From positions 11,655-75,654 of the forward strand of contig PEZT01000016.1 of NCBI GenBank assembly GCA_002773945.1: a stretch of 64,000 nt of DNA. The letters are read 5' to 3'. The notes beneath the pieces were generated by a model. That model was not told where the DNA came from. It searched no databases and saw nothing but the letters and a program-made list of their open reading frames with translations. The position numbers and the translations under genes were made by a program. Numbering within the stretch: the first letter of the stretch is position 1; each line of letters starts with the position of its first letter. Positions 1 through 15,634 of the stretch are shown piece by piece. Source of the DNA: Candidatus Beckwithbacteria bacterium CG10_big_fil_rev_8_21_14_0_10_34_10 (GTDB lineage Bacteria > Patescibacteriota > Microgenomatia > UBA1400).

Positions 1-1032
1 CAAAGCCGCTATTCTTTCCAGTAGTTTTACTTTAGACATTTTTAAATAGTCAGAAACTATTAAGGCCGCTTCAATATTTTCTTTATTCCACTCACCTGGT
101 AAACCGGTTTTAAACTTGCCTTTTCTTTTACCATAAACTTTATTTTGAACTCGACTGGCTTTAATCAACCGATTCATATACTGACTCTTAGCATTAAAAA
201 CAGCTAAACCATCTTTAGGAAGGGATTTAATTAACTCGAACTTGGCCCATTGAGTCTTATCAATTGAACCAAATAGCTCTAGATGTTGTTCATTTATGCC
301 GGTAATAATCCCAATTTTAGGTTTAACCATCTCACAAATTTCTTTAATCTCTCCTTTTTTATAGGCGCCCATTTCCACCACTAAGATTTCATGGCGGGCC
401 CGAAGGTTATTTAGGATTAAGTTAGCAATCCCCAGCTTAGTATTACAATTCATCGGGGTTTTTAAAACATTGTAAAAACTAGACAGGAGGTGGCTTAAAA
501 TCTCTTTAACCGCTGTTTTACCGTAACTCCCCGTTATCCCAATCACTAAAAGATTATTGGCTCTAGAAATCTTTTTCTTAGCCAGATTGATAATCAGTTG
601 TTTTAGAGGAAGCATAAAAAGATGGGTTATAAAAGAGGCCAAAAAGACAGTTAAAGGAACTAAAAGGTTTAAGAAAAACAAAGTGCTAACTAATAAAAGA
701 GGCACACTAACAAAATAGTCTTTTAAAAGACGGAATAGGGCTCTAAGACTTAAGAAGAAGAAATTGTACTGTAAACCAAAGCTTAAGAGTAAGGTTAGCA
801 TGGCTCTTAAGGTAAAACGGGGTCGGTAAAACATCCGCCACTTTAGAATGTTTACTAGCTCCAAAAGCTGCTTTTTACCGGAAACTGTTCTAAAGTGAGC
901 CTGGAGCCGATCAAAACGATATTCTTTTAACTGAACTAAATAAACAAAAAAGAAATTTGACTTAATAATCTGAAGACTTAAGTAAACCAAAAAAAAGAAG
1001 GCTATGGGAACTAAAATATTTAAATCAACCAT
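1..1032 (-). CDS. murF: Mur ligase family protein, probable MurF (UDP-MurNAc-tripeptide--D-Ala-D-Ala ligase). The N-terminus is in the window and the C-terminus runs past position 1. About 160 aa of 3-4 hydrophobic helices precede the P-loop.
   Basis: Reverse-complement translation that I verified codon by codon: MVDLNILVPIAFFFLVYLSLQIIK...LVIGITGSYGKTAVKEILSHL...NTKLGIANLI...VVEMGAYKKGEIKEI...IGIITGINEQHLELFGSIDKT. P-loop GITGSYGKT and the downstream blocks align to E. coli MurF (AITGSSGKTSVKE / NNDIGVP / VIELGANHQGEI / NNLAAAHLEGFGS). The ATG is at 1030-1032. This ORF is absent from the six-frame track, probably because it touches the window edge. Confidence 0.75.
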   Translation of the reverse strand, partial: MVDLNILVPIAFFFLVYLSLQIIKSNFFFVYLVQLKEYRFDRLQAHFRTVSGKKQLLELVNILKWRMFYRPRFTLRAMLTLLLSFGLQYNFFFLSLRALFRLLKDYFVSVPLLLVSTLFFLNLLVPLTVFLASFITHLFMLPLKQLIINLAKKKISRANNLLVIGITGSYGKTAVKEILSHLLSSFYNVLKTPMNCNTKLGIANLILNNLRARHEILVVEMGAYKKGEIKEICEMVKPKIGIITGINEQHLELFGSIDKTQWAKFELIKSLPKDGLAVFNAKSQYMNRLIKASRVQNKVYGKRKGKFKTGLPGEWNKENIEAALIVSDYLKMSKVKLLERIAAL

Positions 1033-1741
1033 TATTAATAAAATCTAAAATATCTTTAGTAAAACACTGACTTTTTTTAAATGGCAAGCTATGGCCACTA
1101 TTATTATAAACGAGCAATTTAGAATTTGGAATGGCTTTTTTCATCATTAAACCATCTTTTAAAGGTGTCACTTTATCTTTTCTGCCCCAAATAATTAATA
1201 CCGGGGCTTTAATTTTCTGAAGCTTTCCTGTTAAATCTTCTTTTAAAATCTTTTTCATCGTCTTTTTCATTATTTTAGAAGCTAAAAAATAGTCTTTTTC
1301 TCGGGCAACTAAATAAAGGGCTTTTTGGGCTAGCTTAGAGAAAAAACAAAATGGAGGTAGATAAAAAAGAGCTTTGCCACTTTTGGCGATTATTAAAAAT
1401 ATTAACTTTTTAAAAGTAAGCTTTTTCCTGATCCCCGCACTATTAACTAAAATTAGGCCTTTTAAATCTTTGTTTTTTAAAGCCGCATATTTAATTCCTA
1501 AACTACCGCCAAAAGAATGACCGAGTAAATAAAAATCTTTAATCTTTTTTTCCTTAAGGTAATTTTTAAGCCAGGAAATATAATCATCTAAATTATAGGC
1601 TTTAACTATTTCTTCTTTTGAAAAGCCCGGCAAAGAAGGCAAAAAAACCCTTAAACCCTTTTCCTCAAATTTTTTCTTAATAGATTCCCATCTTTGAAGT
1701 TTACTGGCCCAACCGTGAAGAATAACAATGTTTTTACTCAT
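1025..1741 (-). CDS. alpha/beta-fold hydrolase (esterase/lipase-like)
   Basis: GHSFGG nucleophile-elbow motif (LLGHSFGGSLG), N-terminal IVILHGW, 238 aa. Confidence 0.6.
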   Translation of the reverse strand: MSKNIVILHGWASKLQRWESIKKKFEEKGLRVFLPSLPGFSKEEIVKAYNLDDYISWLKNYLKEKKIKDFYLLGHSFGGSLGIKYAALKNKDLKGLILVNSAGIRKKLTFKKLIFLIIAKSGKALFYLPPFCFFSKLAQKALYLVAREKDYFLASKIMKKTMKKILKEDLTGKLQKIKAPVLIIWGRKDKVTPLKDGLMMKKAIPNSKLLVYNNSGHSLPFKKSQCFTKDILDFINNG

Positions 1742-4599: not shown

Positions 4600-4803
4600 T
4601 TAATATTTAGGTTCACCCATTGTTCCTAGTCCTATTTTAAGCTGTGCTGCTGTTTTTTCCGGCATAGGTAGTTCTCCACCTGAGCTCATTATCCTTTCCC
4701 ACTTAAAAAATTCTTCTAAATCAGCTACTGGCAAAATTAATTCTACTCCTCCATACCATGTTGAAACTAATGGTTGGTTTTCTCCTTTAATAACTTCTGC
4801 CAT
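4600..4803 (-). CDS. small hypothetical protein (67 aa)
   Basis: MAEVIKGENQPLVSTWYGGVELILPVADLEEFFKWERIMSSGGELPMPEK...; GGAG RBS 5 nt upstream of the ATG (GGAGTTTAAATG); sits 43 nt upstream of glmS; no recognisable family. Confidence 0.45.
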   Translation of the reverse strand: MAEVIKGENQPLVSTWYGGVELILPVADLEEFFKWERIMSSGGELPMPEKTAAQLKIGLGTMGEPKY

Positions 4804-4854: not shown

Positions 4855-5016
4855 CTAAACGCCCACCGCCTCAAGTTTATCTAGTAACCCCATAGCATCC
4901 CATTGCCAATTAGTTAATTTAGCCACTCTTATTTCCCGTGCTTCATAAGTTTCAGAATAAAGGGGTTGCTCATCTATTACGCGCTGGGCATTTAAAATAG
5001 CGCCAGCACCTGCCAT
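4855..5016 (-). CDS. small hypothetical protein (53 aa), locally GC-elevated
   Basis: Not in the ORF track (below the size cutoff). My translation: MAGAGAILNAQRVIDEQPLYSETYEAREIRVAKLTNWQWDAMGLLDKLEAVGV*. AGGA RBS (AGGATATCGATG). Same strand as the neighbours. GC is about 44% by hand count versus about one third in flanking genes. Confidence 0.3.
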   Translation of the reverse strand: MAGAGAILNAQRVIDEQPLYSETYEAREIRVAKLTNWQWDAMGLLDKLEAVGV

Positions 5017-5106: not shown

Positions 5107-6423
5107 CTATTTTACTCTTTTAATATTAGCCCCTAATTGTCTTAGTTTTTCATCTAGTTTCTCATAACCCCTATCAATATGAGATATATTTTCCAAAGTT
5201 GATTTGCCTTTGGCTATCAGGGCGGCCATAACTAGGGTAGCACCAGCCCTAAGATCAGTGACTTTAAGGTTGGCTCCTTTTAAAGGAGTGGGGCCAGTAA
5301 TTTTAGCCGCGTGAAGGTTTTTATCAGTTTCCGGATTATCAAACTCATAGTATTTTTTAAGATTCCTAACTTCTGGATTAAAAAGTTTTATTTTAGCGCC
5401 CATTTTTTCAAGTTCATGACAGTATTGAAAGCGGTTATTATGAACTCTTTCAATAACTTGGCTTATGCCCTTAGCTTGAGTCATTAAGATTGTCCATAAG
5501 GGCTGCCAGTCAGTCATAAAGCCTGGGGCTGGTTGAGTCTCTATATTAGTGGCTTTCAACTGCTTTTCATACCAAAATCTCATTCCAAACTTGTTAGTTT
5601 CAAACTTAGCTCCAATTTCATCCAGCTTTTCTAAAAAAGCTTTAAGGTGGCTTTTTTTAGCATTTTCCAACACTATATCTCCTTTAGTGGCTAAAGCGGC
5701 GACTGCATAAGAAATGGCTTCGTTTCTATCCGGCATCACTTGATGAATTGCCCCTCCCAGTTTTTTAACTCCATTTATTATTATTTCTTCTCCAGGGCCT
5801 CTTTTAATTTCTCCTCCCATTTTATTTAAAAACTCAATTAAATCATCAATTTCCGGCTCTTGACCAGCATTTTCAATTACGGTTCTACCTTTAGCCTTGG
5901 CCGCTACAATAATCATCGCTTCAGTACCAGTATGGGTTTTTTTGTCAAACCTAAAGGTAGTTCCTTTAAGATTTTTTCCGGTTATATGAATATTTTCTCC
6001 CTGATAGGAAACTTTAGCTCCCAAGCTTTTTAAAGCTTCTAAGTGGCGGTTAACCGGCCTTGTTCCTAAAACACATCCCCCTGGCAGGGGAATGATGGCT
6101 TTTCCAGATCGGGCTAAAAGCATGGCCGCAAAAAGAGTCGCCGCTCTAGTTTTTTTGCCTTCTAACTTCGGCAATTGGCTCATTTTTAAACCATTGGCTT
6201 CAATAAAAACAGTTCTTTCACCGCATTTCTTAACCTTAACTCCTATTTTCTTTAAAATTGCTTGGGTGTTTTCCACGTCTGAAATATAGGAGAGGTTGAG
6301 AATCCTTGACTCCCCTTCTCCAAGGGAAGCAGCAATCATTAATTTAAAGCCGGCATTTTTTGCTCCCCCTAATCTAACTGCTCCCATTAAAGGGTTACCA
6401 CCCTCAATCACTAATCTGGCCAT
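5107..6423 (-). CDS. murA: UDP-N-acetylglucosamine 1-carboxyvinyltransferase
   Basis: MARLVIEGGNPLMGAVRLGGAKNA...LPGGCVLGTRPV (catalytic Cys loop)...; 438 aa, EPSP-synthase fold. Confidence 0.9.
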   Translation of the reverse strand: MARLVIEGGNPLMGAVRLGGAKNAGFKLMIAASLGEGESRILNLSYISDVENTQAILKKIGVKVKKCGERTVFIEANGLKMSQLPKLEGKKTRAATLFAAMLLARSGKAIIPLPGGCVLGTRPVNRHLEALKSLGAKVSYQGENIHITGKNLKGTTFRFDKKTHTGTEAMIIVAAKAKGRTVIENAGQEPEIDDLIEFLNKMGGEIKRGPGEEIIINGVKKLGGAIHQVMPDRNEAISYAVAALATKGDIVLENAKKSHLKAFLEKLDEIGAKFETNKFGMRFWYEKQLKATNIETQPAPGFMTDWQPLWTILMTQAKGISQVIERVHNNRFQYCHELEKMGAKIKLFNPEVRNLKKYYEFDNPETDKNLHAAKITGPTPLKGANLKVTDLRAGATLVMAALIAKGKSTLENISHIDRGYEKLDEKLRQLGANIKRVK

Positions 6424-8721
6424 TTAAAATTCTCCTTTTAAGAAAACTTCTTGCTCTAGCCTTAAAGAAAACTTTTCTTTAACTTTTTTTTGAATTAACG
6501 AGACTAATTTTAACACATCTTTGGCTTTGGCATTGGATTTGTTAAGAATAAAGCTGGCATGCTTTTGGCTGACTTGCGCCCCTCCAACTGTCATTCCCTT
6601 AAAACCAGCTTTTTCAATTAAAAATCCAGCTGAATTAGAAGGAGGATTTTTGAAAAAACAACCAGCGCTTTTTTCATTCATCGGATGGTATTTATTTCGA
6701 TATTTAATTGTCTCTTTTACTATTTTCTCAATTTTAAACCTATTTCCTTTTTTAAGTTTGAAAAATAATTTAAGAATAATATCCTTACTTTTTTGAAAGG
6801 TAGAATAATCATAGGAAAACTTTATCTCTTTCCTTTTTAACGTTTTTACTTTTTTCTGTTTTAAATTATAGACTTCTACTTTTTGAATTAGATCTGCCAT
6901 GTATTTATCTTTAAAGTGAGAATTATTAAATACCGCTCCCCCAATAGTTCCGGGCAAACCGGCAAAGTATTCAAACCCAGATAAGCTATTTTCTAAGCCA
7001 TAGCTAACTAGCTGAGAGGTAAAAGCGCCACTCTCCACCCCTAAAAGATCATTATCTTTATCTATTGTCTGGGCCCGGTTAATAATTACTAAGCCCTTTA
7101 TTCCCAGATCACTAATTAAAACATTAGTTCCCCCACCAATAACCTCAAATTTAATCTTTTTTTGAAGGGCCCATTTTATGGCCTTAACTAACTGAGATTT
7201 AGTTTTAACCAGAGTGAAGTATTCGGCCTTACCCCCAATATTAAAGCTGGTAAAAGAGGCTAATGGCTTGTTTTTTTTTATTTTAATGTCTTTTTCTTTA
7301 CTTTTCCTAATATTTCCTAATAAATTTTTATGCCAGTTAAAAATATCACCGGCTCCAAGAGTTATAATTAAATCATTATCCTTAACATTACTTTTAAGAA
7401 ACTCCCCTGCTTCGGGAAAAGATTTTTTGTAAAAAACATTAGGATTATACTTTTTAATCCTCTCTGCTAATATTTCTCCGGAAACATTAGGATCTATTTG
7501 TTCTCGGGCTGAAGCATAAATATCAGTAATGATAACTAGGTCGGCTGAGTTAAAGGCTTTAGCAAAATCTTTTAATAAAGCTTTGGTCCGAGAATAAGTA
7601 TGAGGTTGAAAAATAGCGATTATCCTTTTGTCTTTAAAATTGGCTTTAACAGCTTTTAAAGTTGCCTGAAGCTGACAAGGATGATGAGCATAATCATCAA
7701 AGAACAAAATCCCATTTATTTTTTTAATTAATTCAAACCTTCTTTTAGTGCCTTTAAAGTTTTTTAAACCTTTTATAATTGTCTTTTCATCTATATTAAA
7801 AAACTTAGCCATAATAAAAGCGCCAACTGCATTTTTTAGATTAAATTCTCCGGGAACAGAAAGACTAATTTTAACTGGCTTGCCTTTTTTAGGTTTTATT
7901 AAAAATTCACTTTTCCCCTGCTTTTGCCATAAAAGCTTTATTTGCCAAAAAGCCTCCTTAGTCATCCCAAAGGTTTGAACTGGAACATTTAAGGTCTTTA
8001 TAAGTTTTTTAACCTCTGGACTATCAACCCCGGCGACTAAAAGACCGTTAGGAGGTATTTTTTTAGCAAAGTTTTTAAAAGCTTTTAAAGTCTCAAAAAT
8101 ATCTTTATATACATCAGGATGATCATAGGCAATGTTTGTCATTACCATTGCTTTGGGATTCTGGTAATCAAAACGGGGTCTTTTATCTTGGGGAGAAGAA
8201 AAATACTCATCAGCTTCAGCAATAAAATGCTGACCTTGAAAATCATATTTACCGGAAGCTTCTAGGTTGGAAATTCCCCCGGCACCAACGGCAAAACTAG
8301 GATTGAGTTTAGCGGCTTTAAAAATACTAACTAACATCGCACTTGTAGTTGTCTTCCCTCCTACGCCGCAAACAGATATACCAATCTTAGAATCCATTAG
8401 CAAACCCAAAGCCTGGGCATGAGACATTACCGGAATATTCATTTTTTTTGCAGCCATTACTTCTGGATTTTCTTCTCCCCCATGAGCGGCTGTAAAAACA
8501 AGCAAGTCAACTAACTTAAAATTTGATTCTTTAAAACCTTTGTGCCAAGAAATCCCGGCTTTTTTTAAGGTTTCATCAGTGACAAAATATTCCTCAATAT
8601 CACTCCCGCTTATCTCAATCCCCATATCCTTAAAACACAAAGCCAAAGCTGTCATTCCCACTCCCTTAATCCCTGTCATATGGATTTTTTTAATATTGTT
8701 AAAATCTATTTTGTTATTCAT
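6424..8721 (-). CDS. murC-murB: fused UDP-N-acetylmuramate--L-alanine ligase (MurC, N-terminal about 460 aa) and UDP-N-acetylenolpyruvoylglucosamine reductase (MurB, C-terminal about 300 aa)
   Basis: N-terminus: IHMTGIKGVGMTALA...ISVCGVGGKTTTSAML...LGAGDIFNW (MurC). After a KSKEKDIKIKKNK linker: PLASFTSFNIGGKAEYF...GLPGTIGGAVFNN...SAGCFFKNP...GGAQVSQKHASFILN (type II MurB FAD-binding and substrate domains). A single 765-aa ORF with no internal stop. Confidence 0.85.
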   Translation of the reverse strand: MNNKIDFNNIKKIHMTGIKGVGMTALALCFKDMGIEISGSDIEEYFVTDETLKKAGISWHKGFKESNFKLVDLLVFTAAHGGEENPEVMAAKKMNIPVMSHAQALGLLMDSKIGISVCGVGGKTTTSAMLVSIFKAAKLNPSFAVGAGGISNLEASGKYDFQGQHFIAEADEYFSSPQDKRPRFDYQNPKAMVMTNIAYDHPDVYKDIFETLKAFKNFAKKIPPNGLLVAGVDSPEVKKLIKTLNVPVQTFGMTKEAFWQIKLLWQKQGKSEFLIKPKKGKPVKISLSVPGEFNLKNAVGAFIMAKFFNIDEKTIIKGLKNFKGTKRRFELIKKINGILFFDDYAHHPCQLQATLKAVKANFKDKRIIAIFQPHTYSRTKALLKDFAKAFNSADLVIITDIYASAREQIDPNVSGEILAERIKKYNPNVFYKKSFPEAGEFLKSNVKDNDLIITLGAGDIFNWHKNLLGNIRKSKEKDIKIKKNKPLASFTSFNIGGKAEYFTLVKTKSQLVKAIKWALQKKIKFEVIGGGTNVLISDLGIKGLVIINRAQTIDKDNDLLGVESGAFTSQLVSYGLENSLSGFEYFAGLPGTIGGAVFNNSHFKDKYMADLIQKVEVYNLKQKKVKTLKRKEIKFSYDYSTFQKSKDIILKLFFKLKKGNRFKIEKIVKETIKYRNKYHPMNEKSAGCFFKNPPSNSAGFLIEKAGFKGMTVGGAQVSQKHASFILNKSNAKAKDVLKLVSLIQKKVKEKFSLRLEQEVFLKGEF

Positions 8722-8726
8722 TTAAT

Positions 8727-9470
8727 TTATTCTCTTAAACCAATTAAACTGGCAAACCGGCCTTTTTTCTCCTTATTCTTTAACTCCCGAAAATGGGAAA
8801 AATAGTTTTTAGAACAACAGGTACAAATCTCATTTACCTCTATATTATCCCTTTTTATCCCTAAACTTTGCAACTTGCTGACTAAAAAACTACTTAAGTC
8901 TAAAGAAACCAAACCATTTCTCTCTTTTTTGATAAAATCTTTCCATTCTGGCAATTTACTTTGAACTAATGATCTGTGTCTAAAACAGCAGGCTTTAATT
9001 CCAGGACCTAGAGCCACAATAATATCTTTAAGGTTTGAATTAAACTCAGTCGCCATTAAAAAAAGAGTTTCTAAAAATATTTTCTCAATTGCTCCCCGCC
9101 AGCCAAGATGAACCATGGCAATTACCTTGTTTTTAGGATCATAAAAAAAGACGGGCAGGCAATCAGCGGTTTTTACCATCAAAAAAACATTTCTCTTATT
9201 AGTAACAAGGCCATCAGTTGAAGCAATCGGCTTAATAATTGATTTAACTGTTTTTATTATTTTAACCTGACTGCCATGAACCTGATCCATTTCTATAATC
9301 TGGTTTAAATTAATTTTAAGACTCTTAGCTATTTTCTGCCTGTTTTTTAAAACTTCTTTTTTTAAGCCATATTTATAGGAAACATTACCAAAGCTCCTGG
9401 GGAAAACAGCCGCCGTAAGATGACTAAACTTTTTTAACTTTTTAAACTGAAGAAATTCATTTTTACTCAT
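8727..9470 (-). CDS. pgeF: YfiH/PgeF family (peptidoglycan editing factor / purine nucleoside phosphorylase, DUF152)
   Basis: VKTADCLPVFFYDP...MVHLGWRGAIEKI...ACCFRH; the conserved C / H..GWRG / C..H metal-site pattern of YfiH. Confidence 0.8.
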   Translation of the reverse strand: MSKNEFLQFKKLKKFSHLTAAVFPRSFGNVSYKYGLKKEVLKNRQKIAKSLKINLNQIIEMDQVHGSQVKIIKTVKSIIKPIASTDGLVTNKRNVFLMVKTADCLPVFFYDPKNKVIAMVHLGWRGAIEKIFLETLFLMATEFNSNLKDIIVALGPGIKACCFRHRSLVQSKLPEWKDFIKKERNGLVSLDLSSFLVSKLQSLGIKRDNIEVNEICTCCSKNYFSHFRELKNKEKKGRFASLIGLRE

Positions 9471-9473
9471 TGA

Positions 9474-10220
9474 CTAATAAACTCTAGTCTTCATCAAACT
9501 CTCAGCTTTTTTAAGCTGATCTTTAGTATTAATTCCTTGAAAATATTCCCCCTTAGAAACCTTTAAACTCCCAACTTTCTTATTTTTCTTAATGGCCAAA
9601 CTAACAATATCCGTCAAGTAGTATTCTTTTTTAATCGGGTCTTTTTTTATTAACCTTAAATATTTTTTTATAAACTCGACTTTAAAACAATAACAGCCAG
9701 TGTTAATTTCTTTAATTTTCTTTTGGGTGGCAGTAGTACTTTTTTCCTCAATAATACCTTTTAGCTTCCCTTTTTCATCTCTTATAATTCTTCCCAAGCC
9801 AAAAGGGTTTTTTTTAACAACAGTTAAAATAGACAAGTCTTTTTTATTTAATAAATGATATTTTAAAAGCCTTTTAATCACTCCAGAAGGATAAAAAGCC
9901 GTATCATCAGAATAACAGACAAAAATATTTTTCGTTTTTAGGGGAATTTCTTTTAAGGCGCATTTTAAGGCGTGCGCAGTTCCCAGTCTTCTTCTTTGGT
10001 CAACATAAATTAGCTTTTTTCCAAAATATTTAATGATTGAGTCTTTTTTAAAACCAACTACTAGAAGAATTTTTTCAAGTCCCACATTATTTAAAAGATC
10101 AATTGTATAGCCAATCATGGGCTTGCCTGCCAAAGGATACATGACTTTGTTTATATTCCGGGCATTAATTCTAGAGCCTTTGCCAGCCGCTAAAACAACG
10201 GCCATCATATTCTTAATCAT
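9474..10220 (-). CDS. sugar-1-phosphate nucleotidyltransferase, stand-alone equivalent of the GlmU N-terminal (UDP-GlcNAc pyrophosphorylase) domain
   Basis: AVVLAAGKGSRI...LAGKPM...QRRRLGTAHAL...EINTGCYCF...EYYLTDIV aligns block by block to the E. coli GlmU N-domain (ILAAGKGTRM / QAEQLGTGHAM / EINTGILV / EFYITDII). 248 aa with no LbH repeats. Confidence 0.8.
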   Translation of the reverse strand: MIKNMMAVVLAAGKGSRINARNINKVMYPLAGKPMIGYTIDLLNNVGLEKILLVVGFKKDSIIKYFGKKLIYVDQRRRLGTAHALKCALKEIPLKTKNIFVCYSDDTAFYPSGVIKRLLKYHLLNKKDLSILTVVKKNPFGLGRIIRDEKGKLKGIIEEKSTTATQKKIKEINTGCYCFKVEFIKKYLRLIKKDPIKKEYYLTDIVSLAIKKNKKVGSLKVSKGEYFQGINTKDQLKKAESLMKTRVY

Positions 10221-10756
10221 AGTTTATTTATCTCTCTAAAACTTGTTATTATTAAATCAGGTTTAAATAAAATATTTTCTAAATGGTTTTTTTCATCCTT
10301 TTTTTTATTCCGCCAGACCAAAACAGTTTTTATTGTACCATTTATTGATTTGGCTGTCTTTAGGTTTTCTAACTTATCATCAAAATACCAAATTTCCAAA
10401 TCAGGGGGAATCTTTTGGAAAATATTTTTTAGCTTTTTTGCTTTTGGAGGTGAAAAAATATAGGAGTTTTTAGAACTAAAGAATTTATTAAGCCCAGAAG
10501 CTTTAAGTTTATATCGCTGTCCCCTGATATCTCCTTGAGAAAATAGATAAATCTTATTTCCTTTTTTCAACCAACCATTAAGCTTAGGGTAAACATCTTT
10601 ATACACTAGATCCTGAGGTTCAATTTCTGTCCAATTAATTCTTTTAACTATTTTTAAACAAAAAGGTTCACCCTTTTTATATCCCTTATCTATCCTTTTT
10701 AAAAAATCGGTATTAAATAAAACTCTGTCTAAATCAAAAATTAAAGCTTTTTTCAT
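10217..10756 (-). CDS. HAD-superfamily small phosphatase (capless, GmhB/KdsC-sized)
   Basis: Motif I FDLDRVLF (DxDxV), motif IV YFDDKLENL; 179 aa; ATGA start/stop overlaps with both neighbours. Confidence 0.55.
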   Translation of the reverse strand: MKKALIFDLDRVLFNTDFLKRIDKGYKKGEPFCLKIVKRINWTEIEPQDLVYKDVYPKLNGWLKKGNKIYLFSQGDIRGQRYKLKASGLNKFFSSKNSYIFSPPKAKKLKNIFQKIPPDLEIWYFDDKLENLKTAKSINGTIKTVLVWRNKKKDEKNHLENILFKPDLIITSFREINKL

Positions 10757-11376
10757 AGATTTGGTTTTAAAATTGAATTACTGGAATAAAATCCTGGTTT
10801 TGGATTATATAAGGGATAAACTAAACAACTTTTTCCTAAAACAGTTCCTGGGTTTAAACAACAATTTATTCCCAGTTGGCTATTATCACCAATAATGGCT
10901 CCAAATTTTCTAAAGCCTGTAGAAATAAGTTTTTCCTTGTCCTTAATTTTTATTTCTTTTTTATCAAACCTGAAATTGGCTATTTTACTCCCGCCGCCAA
11001 AATTAACCTTGTTTCCAATCAGGCTATCACTAATATAATTAAAGTGTTTGGCAGAAGACCTGGACATAATAATGGAGTTTTTAATTTCACTCCTGCCTAA
11101 TTTACAATTGTCACCAATAATGACGGGTCCTCTTAAATAAGTAAAGGGTCCAATTTGACAATTAGAACCTATAATAACCTGGCCTTCAATTTGAACTGTT
11201 TTATCAATTATTGACTGAGCACCAACAAGAATTTTCTTTTTACTGGATTTCAGCTTTTGGCTAACATATTTATCCAGCTTTGCTAAGGCTTGCCAGGGAA
11301 AAATAATGTTTTTAAAAATTTCTATTTCTGAAAATTTTTTTAAATCAAAAAAATAGGGGGTCTTAGGAAACTTCAT
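10753..11376 (-). CDS. left-handed beta-helix acetyltransferase, stand-alone equivalent of the GlmU C-terminal (GlcN-1-P N-acetyltransferase) domain
   Basis: Hexapeptide repeats IIGSNCQIGPFTYLRGPVIIGDNCKLG...SAKHFNYISDSLIGNKVNFGGGSKIANF...AIIGDNSQLGINCCLNPGTVLG, comparable to GlmU [30 protein letters not shown]. Confidence 0.7.
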   Translation of the reverse strand: MKFPKTPYFFDLKKFSEIEIFKNIIFPWQALAKLDKYVSQKLKSSKKKILVGAQSIIDKTVQIEGQVIIGSNCQIGPFTYLRGPVIIGDNCKLGRSEIKNSIIMSRSSAKHFNYISDSLIGNKVNFGGGSKIANFRFDKKEIKIKDKEKLISTGFRKFGAIIGDNSQLGINCCLNPGTVLGKSCLVYPLYNPKPGFYSSNSILKPNL

Positions 11377-12587
11377 TTTTTAAGCCTTTCTTTTAAAGCT
11401 TTGGTAACTGCTTTTTTATCAGACCAGGGGATTTCTTTTGTCCCAAAACACATTGATTCTTCATGACCTTTTCCAAAAATACCGACAAGGTCTTTTCTAC
11501 CAGCCATTTTAATAGCTAAATTAATAGCTTTCTGTCTATCTTTTTCAATTATTAATTTATTTTTGTCTTGACAACCCGAGCTTATTTCTTTAATAATTTT
11601 ATCCAAGCTTTCAGTCCGAGGATCTTCAGCTGTTAAGACTACTTTATCAGCCAGATTACAGGCAATTTTTCCCATCATTGGTCTTTTTTCTCGATCCCTT
11701 AAGCCAGCCGAGCCAAAAACTGCTATTAATCGGCCCTTTTTATCAATTCTTAAGGTTTTCAGGACGTTTTCCAAAGCATTAGGTGTATGAGCAAAATCAA
11801 CCATCACTTTAAAGTTTTGACCTAGGTAAATTTCCTCCATCCGACCTTCAACTCCTTTAAAATTACTTACCGCCCTTAAAATATTTTTATTAGGAATCTT
11901 TAGGATTTTTCCAACACTAATAGCCGCCAAACAATTAGCCAGATTAAAATTGCCTTTTAAATTAGTTTTAAATTGGTAGTTCAAAAGGTTATAGTCACCT
12001 TTTTTAAGTCCGTAAGAAATGATTCTCCCTAAAGATTGGCTTTTAAAATCCTCAAAACTTTGATCATCAATATTTAAAACTGAAAAACCGCTTTTTTTAA
12101 ACAGCTTGGCTTTAGCTTTAAGATAATTTTCTTTAGTCTTGTGATAATCCAAATGCTCATGAGAAACATTAGTTAAAACCGATATCTTAAAGTCGATTCC
12201 TAAAAAACGATACTGGTCCAGACCATGAGAAGTCACTTCTAAAACTAAGTATTCATAGCCTTTATTTAAGATGAGTTTAAGAATTTTTTGTAATTTCCAA
12301 GGATCTGGTGAAGTTACATGGAGGCCGGTGGAGAGATTCTGATCACCAATTTTGGCGGAAACTGTGGTTATTAAAGCAGTTTTGTAATTAGCTTTTTTTA
12401 AAATTTCGTAAATTAGCGTGCTTGTGGTTGTTTTGCCGTCAGTCCCAGTCACCCCAATAATCTTTAATTTTTTCCCGGGAAAGCGGTAATACAAAGCCGC
12501 TAAAAATGCCATAGGTAAATGGTAAAAAGTATTAATTACTTTCTGGGAAATTAAATTTTTTAAAAAACTAATTAATTTTTTTATCAT
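11373..12587 (-). CDS. murE: UDP-MurNAc-L-Ala-D-Glu--2,6-diaminopimelate (or L-Lys) ligase with a shortened N-terminal domain
   Basis: IIGVTGTDGKTTTS...LEVTSHGLDQYRF...TNVSHEHLDYHKT, comparable to E. coli MurE GVTGTNGKTTT / EVSSHGLVQHRV / NLSRDHLDYHG. Only about 40 aa precede the P-loop; 404 aa. Confidence 0.8.
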   Translation of the reverse strand: MIKKLISFLKNLISQKVINTFYHLPMAFLAALYYRFPGKKLKIIGVTGTDGKTTTSTLIYEILKKANYKTALITTVSAKIGDQNLSTGLHVTSPDPWKLQKILKLILNKGYEYLVLEVTSHGLDQYRFLGIDFKISVLTNVSHEHLDYHKTKENYLKAKAKLFKKSGFSVLNIDDQSFEDFKSQSLGRIISYGLKKGDYNLLNYQFKTNLKGNFNLANCLAAISVGKILKIPNKNILRAVSNFKGVEGRMEEIYLGQNFKVMVDFAHTPNALENVLKTLRIDKKGRLIAVFGSAGLRDREKRPMMGKIACNLADKVVLTAEDPRTESLDKIIKEISSGCQDKNKLIIEKDRQKAINLAIKMAGRKDLVGIFGKGHEESMCFGTKEIPWSDKKAVTKALKERLKK

Positions 12588-12669: not shown

Positions 12670-14424
12670 CTAACTTGGAGGAATTCCATAATATAGTAAA
12701 AGTTCTTTAGTAATGGAAAAAAATAAAGGGGCGGCTGTTTCTGATCCCCAAGGAGATGAGCTTGGTTCTCTTAATTTAACTAACATTACAAATTTAGGTT
12801 CTTTGGCCGGGGCAAAACCTACAAAAGAAGCAATTGTTTTTTCTGTATCATAGTGTCCAGCGACTGGAATCTGGGCCGTACCCGTTTTACCGGCCACCTG
12901 ATAGCCTTTTATTTTTAACCACTTTGTTTCTCCTTTTTCCACTGCCTGAACCATCATTTCAGTTATTATCTTGGCTGTTTTTGGCTTAATTACTTCTCTT
13001 AATACTTCTGGCTCAATTTTTATTCTCTCACCTGAAGAAATTATTTCCTTGACTACCTGAGGCTTCATTAGTTTGCCGCCATTAGCAATCGCTCCAGTGG
13101 CTCTTAAAAGCTGAGTCCCACTAACCGCTAAACCCTGACCAAAAGAAGCCGTCGCTAAATCAACATTGTTCCAAAAACTCTTATCTTTTAAAAGCGCTTC
13201 TGTTTCTCCCTGAAGATCAATCTCTGTTAAACTACCAAAACCAAAATCAGTTAAATACTGAAAAAAATCATCCAGGCCAAGCTTCCGCGAAACAAAAACC
13301 ATTCCTAAATTATCTGAGTTCTGAATCACCTTGTCCATGGTGGAATCAGGATGATATTTTTCATCCCAGGTTTTAATTTCATATTTATCAATCTTTAAAG
13401 GCTTATCACAAATATCGCACTTGGTATTACTTTTGACTACCTCTTTATCTAGGGCAGCAGCCATCACAAAAATCTTGAAAGTTGAACCTGGCTCATATGA
13501 ATCAGAAATAAGATCATTTATAAACTTATCTTTATCAAAGAGATAATATTTCTTAGGATCAAAACTGGGGTAATTGGCTAAAGCAATCACTCCTCCTGTC
13601 CAGGGATCCATAATCATAACTGAACCTGATTTAGCCCCATATTTTTCCACGGCTTTTTCAAGCTTTTCTTCAACCATAAATTGAATTGACCGATTGAGAT
13701 GAAGGACCAAATTTTGGCCATCTTTTTTTTCCTGACTGAAAAAAGAACCAATTAAAATCGGTTTGTTAGCCGCATCAGTTTCTTGAGTTAAAAGACCTTG
13801 TCTGCCCCTAAGCTCATTATCATAATAGCCTTCCAAGCCAAAATAGCCGGTGTCTTGTCCGGCTTCATTTTTTCCCAAAAAACCTAAAAGATGAGCCGCC
13901 ATAGAAGCTTCAGGATAATAACGGATTTGCTCCTCTTCAAAACCCAAACCTTTAAGCTTCAAATCTTCTATTTTTTCTTTATCTTCCTTAAGGATCTTAT
14001 GTTTAAGAATCACCCAGGATAAATTATCCAACTGAAGTTTTTCTAAAAGATTTTCCTCTTCTTTTTTGATTAAATCCTTTTTCAAGGGCTTTTTTTTACC
14101 CTCTTGACTGGCTTCCTCTTCAAAAAAAGTAAAAGGGGCTAATTTTAAAGCTATCTCTTTTACTGGTTTATTAATTTCTCTTAAAGAAGTAAAAAGCAAA
14201 TAAGCGGTTTTATTACTGGCTAAAGGAAAGTTGTCACTGGCTAGAATTTCCCCTCTTTTAGACTGGATCTCTTTTTCAGAATAATATTGGTTTTTGGCTA
14301 AATTAGCCAGACTTTCTCGGGCTAAAACCTGCCAATAAAAAAGCCGGGAAATAATTGCTATAAAAAGAAGGATAAAAATAATCTTCAGGCTTTGTAAGCG
14401 CCAAAAAAAAGGCGGTTTTTTCAT
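12670..14424 (-). CDS. ftsI: penicillin-binding protein, class B transpeptidase (FtsI/PBP2-like)
   Basis: N-terminal transmembrane segment; STFK (SxxK), SDN (NSDNLG) and KTGTA active-site triad; position directly after ftsL in an mraZ-rsmH-ftsL cluster. Confidence 0.85.
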   Translation of the reverse strand: MKKPPFFWRLQSLKIIFILLFIAIISRLFYWQVLARESLANLAKNQYYSEKEIQSKRGEILASDNFPLASNKTAYLLFTSLREINKPVKEIALKLAPFTFFEEEASQEGKKKPLKKDLIKKEEENLLEKLQLDNLSWVILKHKILKEDKEKIEDLKLKGLGFEEEQIRYYPEASMAAHLLGFLGKNEAGQDTGYFGLEGYYDNELRGRQGLLTQETDAANKPILIGSFFSQEKKDGQNLVLHLNRSIQFMVEEKLEKAVEKYGAKSGSVMIMDPWTGGVIALANYPSFDPKKYYLFDKDKFINDLISDSYEPGSTFKIFVMAAALDKEVVKSNTKCDICDKPLKIDKYEIKTWDEKYHPDSTMDKVIQNSDNLGMVFVSRKLGLDDFFQYLTDFGFGSLTEIDLQGETEALLKDKSFWNNVDLATASFGQGLAVSGTQLLRATGAIANGGKLMKPQVVKEIISSGERIKIEPEVLREVIKPKTAKIITEMMVQAVEKGETKWLKIKGYQVAGKTGTAQIPVAGHYDTEKTIASFVGFAPAKEPKFVMLVKLREPSSSPWGSETAAPLFFSITKELLLYYGIPPS

Positions 14425-14810
14425 TAGGGATTAAGAGCGACTGGAACTTTACTGCTTAGATTTTTAACCATTGGATTTTTATTAAAACCTTTTTCTAAAG
14501 CCATATCTTCTAGTTTAGCCAAGCCGCCTCTTGAAGCGGTCTCACTTTTTACCTGGCTGTTTCTTTCCTCAATTAAGGCTATTTCTTTTTCAATTAGTTT
14601 TAAGTTCCTACCATAAGTCGCCAACCGATTAGAAAGGTAAATTTGGGCCAGAGATAAAATCGCCACTAAAACAAAAGGCAGAAAATATAACAAGTTGCCT
14701 TTGGTTATATTTTTACTGCTACCCTTAGCTTGGCGCTTCTTGAGCGTCGATTTTCTTCCCGCTCCTTTAGAGTGGGAACAACCACCTTTTTGGTTAAAAT
14801 CTGTAAGCAC
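14424..14810 (-). CDS. ftsL: FtsL-like cell-division protein (single TM plus coiled coil). The true start is probably internal, possibly a TTG near 14700.
   Basis: LLYFLPFVLVAILSLAQIYLSN followed by KLIEKEIALIEERNSQVKSE; the listed 5' end overlaps the rsmH 3' end by about 100 nt in another frame; position between rsmH and ftsI. Confidence 0.6.
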   Translation of the reverse strand: MLTDFNQKGGCSHSKGAGRKSTLKKRQAKGSSKNITKGNLLYFLPFVLVAILSLAQIYLSNRLATYGRNLKLIEKEIALIEERNSQVKSETASRGGLAKLEDMALEKGFNKNPMVKNLSSKVPVALNP

Positions 14811-15634
14811 TTTTCAGTTTCTCCTTTTTTAAAATAATTTTTAACTATTTTATCTTCTAAACCGTGAAAGCTTATAACTACTAACCGGCCACCTGATTCT
14901 AATACCCTGGCCGCTTGTTTTAATCCCTTTTTTAAATTGTTTAACTCATCATTAACAGCTATTCTTAGACTTAAAAAAACTTTAGTCGCCGGGTGAATCT
15001 TGCTTCTCCCCCTGTATTTCCGCCAATATACTTTTTTGACAATCTCCGCTAGTTGTCTAGTAGTCCTAATTGGCTCTCTTTTCCTATCCAAAACAACCGC
15101 TTTAGCAATTGGTAAAGAAAGTGGTTCTTCACCCATTTCAGAAAAAAGTTTAATAAGTTCTTTTTCATGTAAGCCATTTATTAAATCTCCTGCTTTAACT
15201 TTTAAACTCGGGTCCATCCGCATATCTAAAGATTCATCAATTTGAAAAGAAAACCCTCTTTCATCCGTCTCTAGCTGATGGGAGGAAACTCCTAAATCAA
15301 ACAGGATCCCGGAAACTTTAGAAATCTTATTTTTTTTAAGGATTTCCTCTAAATTAGCAAAGTTTCCCTGGCAAATAGTATAAGAAGCATTAGGGCAGAC
15401 ATTTTTAAAATGCTTCTTAACATATGCTATTGCCTCTGGGTCTTGGTCTAAGCCAAAAACATGACCTCCTTTCTTAATGATCCTTAAACTGTGACCACCG
15501 CCACCCAAAGTGGCATCTAGATAAAGCTTGCCTGGCTTTACCTTTAAAAATTCTACTGCTTCATTTAAAAGTACTGGCTGATGAAATAGTCTATTTTTGG
15601 TCACCTTCATCAAGCCTCTGACTAATTTTTTCAA
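14705..15634 (-). CDS. rsmH: 16S rRNA (cytosine1402-N4)-methyltransferase
   Basis: HQPVLLNEAVEFL...YLDATLGGGGHS...GILFDLGVSSHQLE...RLVVISFHGLEDKIVK. Confidence 0.9.
   Translation of the reverse strand: MKKLVRGLMKVTKNRLFHQPVLLNEAVEFLKVKPGKLYLDATLGGGGHSLRIIKKGGHVFGLDQDPEAIAYVKKHFKNVCPNASYTICQGNFANLEEILKKNKISKVSGILFDLGVSSHQLETDERGFSFQIDESLDMRMDPSLKVKAGDLINGLHEKELIKLFSEMGEEPLSLPIAKAVVLDRKREPIRTTRQLAEIVKKVYWRKYRGRSKIHPATKVFLSLRIAVNDELNNLKKGLKQAARVLESGGRLVVISFHGLEDKIVKNYFKKGETEKCLQILTKKVVVPTLKEREENRRSRSAKLRVAVKI

Follow-up and report, generated by a model that had tools for sequence, protein, structure and literature searches.

We analyzed a 64,000-nucleotide stretch of a Candidatus Beckwithbacteria contig (PEZT01000016.1, positions 11,655 to 75,654; hereafter the window), which carries a cluster of cell-wall and cell-division genes and begins inside a putative murF gene. 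A preliminary description, made from the letters of the window alone, had read this gene as a MurF ligase whose N-terminal substrate-binding domain is replaced by a polytopic membrane segment. The gene lies on the minus strand at 1..1032, and its frame, read from 1032 down to 1, holds 344 codons without a stop, as had been claimed, and leaves the window at position 1. The window share corresponds to the first 71% of the gene (344/484 residues). The complete protein, P0001, has 484 residues, is 100% identical over the 344 window residues with the identical start (MVDLNILVP), and is encoded identically on independent assemblies from JGI, Logan and NCBI, where NCBI labels this Candidatus Beckwithbacteria protein as "hypothetical". 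The peptides quoted in the preliminary description (GITGSYGKT, NTKLGIANLI, VVEMGA, NEQHLELFGS and three hydrophobic stretches) were all recovered from the translation. The start codon (ATG, 1032-1030) had been described as abutting the stop of the upstream gene; the two are indeed adjacent, but the actual relation is an 8-nucleotide overlap with the TGA at 1027-1025 (ATGGTTGA), an arrangement that fits translational coupling. On inspection of the sequence we saw no strong Shine-Dalgarno element before the ATG at 1032 and no Shine-Dalgarno element before an internal methionine, which exists as described but at codon 140 instead of near codon 138. The G+C content of the window ranges from 27 to 37%, in keeping with a genome of the Patescibacteria.

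The ligase core of the protein (residues 161-484) is of the MurF type, as judged by profile comparison and by its predicted fold. Mur_ligase_M (PF08245; residues 166-298, E 2e-30) was the sole Pfam match in the window part, and Mur_ligase_C (PF02875), most of which lies beyond the window, is precomputed for full-length P0001. The best NCBIfam model for the full-length protein was murF TIGR01143 (198 bits, E 2e-58), followed by MurF-containing fusion models and further MurF models, whereas the other ligase types scored 64 (murD), 47 (murC) and 43 bits (murE). The 344-residue window part alone matched TIGR01143 at E 5e-42. Among solved sequences the closest were again MurF proteins, led by that of Thermotoga maritima (3zl8, 9e-31) and followed by 4cvk and 1gg4; the species represented, besides T. 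maritima, were Pseudomonas aeruginosa, Escherichia coli and Acinetobacter baumannii. An AlphaFold2 model of the protein found its best fold matches in the MurF structures 4qf5 (E 2e-22, target-normalised TM-score 0.67) and 3zl8, and then in MurC, MurE and MurD.

The residues expected of a working ligase appear to be retained in this core. The central ATP-binding domain is assigned by Pfam, structure alignment and fold to residues 161-310 (103..552, minus strand) and includes the P-loop GITGSYGKT (residues 165-173; 514..540, minus strand) as well as T192-x4-N197, E220 and Q249-H250. The C-terminal domain, delimited with the full-length protein and the model, starts in the window at residues 311-344 (1..102, minus strand), with the remainder at positions 10001-11455 of L001, a 20-kb locus from which the downstream genes were read. 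In an alignment of 60 homologues the residues G165, G168, S169, G171 and K172 of the P-loop, together with T192, N197, E220, Q249, H250, N280, N370 and E398, were invariant. The segment KTPMNCNTKLG aligned with ktpgNmNteyG of T. maritima MurF (the T..N.N..G motif), and VIDDTYSSNP, which contains N370, aligned with ivDDtYnasP of the same enzyme. We regard T-x-x-N-x-N-x-x-x-G, which follows the P-loop, and DDxYxxNP, in the C-terminal domain, as motifs typical of MurF.

The region in front of the core (residues 1-160; 553..1032, minus strand) bears no resemblance to the canonical domain by the profiles used. Residues 1-160 matched no Pfam or NCBIfam family, the Pfam family of the canonical MurF N-domain did not match the window part even at E<=1, and a Pfam comparison of 38 homologous N-domains, each taken separately, revealed no family that recurred. 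TIGR01143 aligned residues 149-309 to its positions 63-222 (of 418) and left the first 62 positions unmatched; since the murF profile match begins only at position 63, canonical domain 1 is absent. In its place the AlphaFold2 model, built from 60 homologues, predicts three long hydrophobic helices (2-35, 75-102 and 110-157), with a pLDDT (per-residue model confidence) of 93.3 and a pTM (predicted TM-score) of 0.88 for the full-length protein, and 94.2 and 0.84, respectively, for the N-domain modelled alone. Kyte-Doolittle hydropathy in 19-residue windows exceeded 1.6 at residues 1-30 and 102-148. The exchange of the N-domain for a membrane segment, as first proposed, is thus borne out by the profiles and the model; the "3-4 helices" of the proposal were right as to their hydrophobic nature, and their number in the model is three.

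The charge distribution allowed us to predict a topology. Averaged over the 60 homologues, the number of lysines plus arginines is 0.03 in the N-terminal tail, 10.0 in the loop of residues 34-76, 0.6 in the loop of residues 103-110 and 5.8 after helix 3; by the positive-inside rule the N-terminus would lie outside, with the basic loop of about 40 residues and the ligase in the cytoplasm. On the minus strand, the predicted first transmembrane helix (TM1, residues 2-35) occupies 928..1029 and is followed by a basic cytoplasmic loop (residues 36-74; 811..927) for which the model predicts short helices at 40-47 and 50-60. The second transmembrane helix (TM2, residues 75-102) maps to 727..810, and the putative membrane part of the third (TM3, residues 110-143 of helix 110-157) to 604..705. 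TM3 has a basic continuation (residues 144-160, LKQLIINLAKKKISRANN; 553..603), delimited by profile, structure alignment and model, which from about residue 147 aligns to the last helix of canonical MurF before the P-loop.

Conservation in the N-domain is concentrated in two motifs of the cytoplasmic loop. The first, Q-x-K-E-Y-R-x-D-R, lies at the cytoplasmic end of TM1 (Q34-L-K-E-Y-R-F-D-R42; 907..933, minus strand), and the second, P-x-x-T, just before TM2 (P71-x-x-T74; 811..822, minus strand). Q34, E37, Y38, R42 and P71 were invariant in the 60 homologues, while K36, R39, D41, T74 (in 58/60) and A151 were conserved at 90% or more. Some longer relatives, such as P0112, apparently have two extra hydrophobic helices inserted between the two motifs, and an insertion of two helices would leave both motifs on one side of the membrane. 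Conservation argues that the N-domain is more than a passive anchor, because the basic loop carries these five invariant residues. The preliminary description was thus correct that the soluble domain is replaced, but its picture of hydrophobic helices alone missed an invariant polar and basic motif that is predicted to face the cytoplasm.

The architecture is widespread, well beyond anything that chance would produce. Among the 120 best full-length-query matches (425-562 residues), every full-length protein has 134-211 residues with 2-6 hydrophobic segments ahead of the P-loop; only one fragment and two N-terminally cut gene calls (P0026, P0087 and P0024) have less. The motif [KR]EYRxDR was present in 106 of these 120. 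A profile built from the N-domain only, searched against 1.84 billion cluster representatives (50% identity), gave 1071 clusters at E<=1e-3 and, at the stricter threshold of E<=1e-10, 406. In every protein from this search the domain was N-terminal, and a simple pattern found a Mur-ligase P-loop after it in 110 of the 138 newly returned proteins, the rest being mostly short fragments or proteins with a variant P-loop. Some lineages have five or more membrane helices in the N-domain. In a scan of GTDB contigs, with one genome per species, a degenerate DNA pattern for W-Q-x-K-E-Y-R-x-D-R matched at least 120 loci; 116 of the 120 species loci listed encode the N-domain when searched with the family alignment (hmmsearch), which gives at least 116 species genomes. 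Nearly all loci are titled as Patescibacteria, and the record titles comprise Parcubacteria/Paceibacterota, Microgenomates (Levy-, Woese-, Gottesman-, Beckwith-, Shapiro- and Chisholmbacteria), Saccharibacteria, Dojkabacteria, Peribacteria, Magasanik-, Kerfeld- and Spechtbacteria and Altimarinota, itself a group of Patescibacteria. From this distribution of homologues, we take the membrane form to be the standard version of MurF throughout the Candidate Phyla Radiation (CPR), and neither a peculiarity of this genome nor a local fusion.

The same distribution bears on the possibility that the gene is an artefact, in which a frameshift or assembly error had joined a small membrane-protein gene to murF, or in which translation starts at Met140 and the hydrophobic part is an untranslated spacer. 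The window is a single sequence and no strong ribosome-binding element precedes the ATG at 1032, but Met140 is no better placed in this respect, and the overlap with the upstream stop is as expected of a coupled start. The independent assemblies agree on the protein, a single open reading frame (ORF) is maintained in more than 100 species with the N-domain ahead of the ligase and in frame, and the N-terminal part has invariant residues and a confidently predicted fold. Conservation across species effectively refutes an artefact, and we rejected an internal start at Met140, a frameshift fusion and a spacer on the basis of the reading frame and the conserved residues. The preliminary description had named homologues starting at the internal methionine, a frameshift that splits off the hydrophobic part and a match of the N-terminal part to a separate known family as outcomes that would speak against it, and had asked whether related genomes share the extension. 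They do; the homologues keep the N-domain in one frame with the ligase, its conservation is at the protein level, including the five invariant residues, and it belongs to no Pfam or NCBIfam family.

A few records of the membrane MurF fall outside the CPR by title. Species-representative metagenome-assembled genomes in ENA titled Gammaproteobacteria, Pseudomonadales, Humimicrobiaceae (Actinomycetota; one) and archaeon (one) contain the gene (L008, L011, L012, L018, L019, L024, L025, L030, L041 and L042; G+C 33-48%). Wherever enough flanking sequence was present, the neighbours were as in the CPR loci, and these records are probably mislabelled or mis-binned, rather than a sign that the gene has spread beyond the CPR. 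Two single-member clusters showed additional domains: P0131 (649 residues, on a 2948-bp ENA contig) is a membrane MurF fused to a FemAB domain, and P0139 (915 residues, on a 12787-bp JGI contig) combines a membrane MurF with a DegT/DnrJ/EryC1 aminotransferase and is named perosamine synthetase by JGI. It is possible that these are real fusions, or that they come from lost stop codons or assembly artefacts.

The neighbouring genes follow the classical order of the division and cell wall (dcw) cluster, and the membrane MurF sits in the murF slot between murE and mraY. From the upstream end, the order is rsmH (14705-15634), ftsI (12670-14424), murE (11373-12587), four inserted genes, a murC-murB fusion (6424-8721), murA (5107-6423), two small ORFs, glmS, a CofD-family gene, an alpha/beta-hydrolase gene (1025-1741) and the membrane MurF. 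The genes downstream, as read from L001, are femAB, two small ORFs, mraY, murI, murD, ftsW and murG. Several other loci have the order murE-murC/B-murA-[membrane MurF] or [membrane MurF]-mraY-ftsW-murG. Frameshift fragments aside, there was no second MurF-like ORF in the window or L001 (74 kb), nor in 116 other loci, each at most 8 kb long. The upstream hydrolase (1025..1741, minus strand; 238 residues), whose stop overlaps the MurF start, is a GHSFGG serine hydrolase with generic Pfam matches only, and in 75 related loci it directly precedes the membrane MurF. A FemAB-family gene (L001 11458-12474, plus strand) is the immediate downstream neighbour in 52 loci, both counts being limited by contig ends. 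The alpha/beta-hydrolase, the membrane MurF and the FemAB-family peptidyl transferase thus form a conserved three-gene module (related loci L003-L122), and the hydrolase and FemAB parts of it do not belong to the classical dcw cluster.

We propose that the protein is the CPR MurF, which adds D-Ala-D-Ala to uridine diphosphate (UDP)-N-acetylmuramic acid (MurNAc)-tripeptide, and that it works as an integral membrane protein. We regard this full statement as probable, and are more confident of its first part, namely that the protein is a MurF orthologue with a membrane N-domain. The D-Ala-D-Ala-adding activity is suggested by the family assignment, the conserved catalytic residues and the position of the gene. 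Peptidoglycan synthesis has been reported within the core gene set of Parcubacteria (PMC4508563). In the arrangement that we envisage, the three-helix membrane domain takes the place of the soluble domain 1, helix 3 would leave the membrane without a break and continue as the helix ahead of the P-loop, and the ATP-binding and C-terminal domains would be suspended at the cytoplasmic side of the membrane. In canonical MurF, the soluble domain 1 holds the UDP end of the substrate. The invariant motif at the interface may either take over the binding of this UDP-pyrophosphate end or dock MurF on MraY. The membrane domain would fix MurF where MraY consumes its product, and UDP-MurNAc-pentapeptide would then be made at the site of its use by MraY. 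A tether next to MraY, as suggested in the preliminary description, is consistent with the gene order.

Several points weigh against this proposal. The domain that normally binds UDP is absent, and use of a UDP-linked substrate is an assumption. The score of full-length P0001 with TIGR01143 (198.4 bits) is below the curated cutoff of 288.6 bits, which explains names such as "hypothetical" and "Mur ligase family protein". A D-Ala-D-Ala ligase (Ddl) was not found among the 20 mid-sized window ORFs scanned; neither was MreB among these ORFs, most of which are glycosyltransferases. By these profile comparisons the protein is best filed as a divergent MurF that departs from the family in two formal features: it lacks the canonical domain 1 and scores below the curated cutoff.

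The low score could also be read as a sign that the protein is a paralogous Mur-type ligase. Acting with the hydrolase and the FemAB-family enzyme, it might, for instance, attach a different amino acid or dipeptide to the stem peptide or some other envelope polymer, while a canonical MurF would be encoded elsewhere in the genome. The tight module with two genes foreign to the dcw cluster would suit such a role, as would the aminotransferase fusion in P0139, and there is a precedent in CapB/PgsB, a membrane-anchored relative of the Mur ligases that makes poly-gamma-glutamate. We nevertheless think this improbable. Here and in other loci the gene sits where murF is expected, between murE and mraY; no further MurF-like gene turned up in the 74 kb searched here or in the 116 shorter loci; and the protein retains DDxYxxNP as well as the MurF-type motif that follows the P-loop. 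CapB/PgsB is alike in being a Mur-ligase-family enzyme with an N-terminal hydrophobic anchor in a membrane complex, but it has a single anchor, another product and another gene context, in contrast to the three-helix domain found here. The match to its model, TIGR04012, was marginal (E 0.003; 16 bits against a cutoff of 222.7).

MurF is not the only ligase of this cluster with an unusual N-terminus. The cluster MurE (11373-12587, minus strand) has 404 residues, lacks the canonical domain 1, has its P-loop at about residue 45 and has no membrane segment; the MurE model NF001126 aligns to it from model position 88 of 486. The same short MurE N-terminus was seen in three other CPR loci (L019 5629-6903, L118 295-1554 and L101 1-864). 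From these alignments, it appears that in the CPR the canonical domain 1 has been lost from both late Mur ligases, MurE and MurF. The MurC and MurD of the cluster retain their UDP-binding N-domains, and MraY looks ordinary.

The loss of domain 1 raises the alternative that the substrate is lipid-linked, with D-Ala-D-Ala added after MraY to undecaprenyl-pyrophosphoryl-MurNAc-tripeptide (a short-stem form of lipid I or II) and with the Arg/Lys/Tyr motif holding the lipid pyrophosphate. Such a substrate would account for an invariant basic motif at the membrane interface and for a MurE that also lacks domain 1, in this cluster and in other CPR loci. It has a parallel in MurT, a homologue of the Mur ligases that likewise lacks domain 1 and acts on lipid II at the membrane face. 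The conserved neighbour of the FemAB family points the same way, as some enzymes of this family have lipid II as their substrate. However, MurC and MurD with their UDP-binding domains and an ordinary MraY speak against it, and the window part is far nearer to MurF (E 5e-42) than to MurT (1e-4). The MurE without domain 1 has no membrane segment, so a lipid substrate does not follow from loss of the domain alone. We consider a lipid-linked substrate unlikely, though slightly less so than a paralogous ligase. A broader version holds that the last two stem-peptide steps have been rebuilt around the membrane in the CPR, through a MurE without its UDP-binding domain and a MurF in which a membrane domain, with a motif resembling a pyrophosphate-binding one, stands in for that domain, plus the hydrolase and FemAB, on lipid-linked or MraY-channelled intermediates; it is about equally doubtful, but if true it would change the textbook order of MurF followed by MraY.

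The comparison with MurT of the MurT/GatD lipid II amidotransferase (6H5E, 6FQB) can be taken further. Both proteins lack the UDP-binding domain 1, and MurT appears among the structural and the sequence matches of the protein. MurT differs in being soluble, without membrane helices, and in having the glutaminase GatD as its partner; there was no gatD-like gene among the called genes of L001. The similarity is weak, with an E value of 6e-6 against PDB sequences compared with 9e-31 for MurF, and the MurT model NF045635 gave E 1.3e-4 and 21 bits with the window part, against a cutoff of 800. Judged by these scores and those of TIGR04012, the protein is neither MurT nor PgsB.

Returning to the reading of the protein as a membrane-bound MurF, its likeness to the canonical enzymes (3ZL8 of T. 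maritima, 4QF5 of A. baumannii and 1GG4 of E. coli) extends over the central and C-terminal domains, with the P-loop, T-x4-N-x-N, the Mg-binding glutamate, the H-L motif and DDxYxxNP, and over the gene position between murE and mraY. The difference lies in domain 1, which is soluble and about 80-100 residues long in the canonical enzymes, in contrast to the 160-residue three-helix membrane domain with its own invariant motif. Mur ligases readily gain or lose modules, as in the known fusions MurE-MurF (NF008896), MurF-alanine racemase (NF008897) and MurC-Ddl (NF011171), but these join two soluble enzymes and none exchanges domain 1 for a membrane domain. Mur enzymes held on a scaffold are comparable in that the last cytoplasmic step is kept at the membrane near MraY and MurG; chlamydial MreB, for example, binds MurF, MraY and MurG (PMC3187750). 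The tether in those systems is a protein-protein contact of a soluble MurF, whereas here it would lie within the polypeptide.

Mur ligases are the textbook case of soluble enzymes of the cytoplasm, and MurF is a target for antibiotics. In the literature that we searched on CPR genomics and peptidoglycan there was no description of a membrane-embedded MurF, in agreement with the preliminary description; subscription journals were mostly outside this search, and the absence is no proof. The architecture is apparently undescribed, although database entries exist under generic names or none. If our reading is correct, the picture of the soluble Mur ligase would be overturned for a very large bacterial radiation, reported to hold >=15% of bacterial diversity. 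In the tiny CPR cells, the passage from soluble to lipid-linked precursors of peptidoglycan would be physically wired into one place, and the protein would offer a concrete, testable case of substrate channelling to MraY. The architecture raises the question of how the substrate is recognized without the UDP-binding domain, and presents a membrane domain that is new and conserved and whose five invariant residues are open to mutation. It also reveals the conserved hydrolase-MurF-FemAB module and explains the frequent annotation as "hypothetical", through which CPR peptidoglycan pathways can look incomplete.

We made several further observations on the cluster, all on the minus strand unless stated otherwise. 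The MurC-MurB fusion (6424-8721) has 765 residues, with murC TIGR01082 at residues 12-467 and murB at 474-763; the JGI call on the corresponding DNA began internally (513 residues), and several other CPR loci have two separate ORFs. The inserted genes between murE and murC (8727-11376) encode a 207-residue hexapeptide-repeat protein with GlmU-like matches, a 179-residue protein without a Pfam match, a 248-residue NTP_transferase and a 247-residue Cu-oxidase_4 protein; the hexapeptide-repeat and nucleotidyltransferase genes might represent a split GlmU. The two small ORFs between murA and glmS (4600-4803 and 4855-5016; 67 and 53 residues) have no Pfam match on record and were called on both independent contigs. 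Directly upstream of the dcw cluster, from about 21700 to 51300 and without regard to strand, lies a long run of glycosyltransferase genes (GT1/GT4 and GT2) with one nucleotidyl transferase and two NAD-dependent epimerase/dehydratases, which has the appearance of a large cluster for surface polysaccharide or glycosylation.

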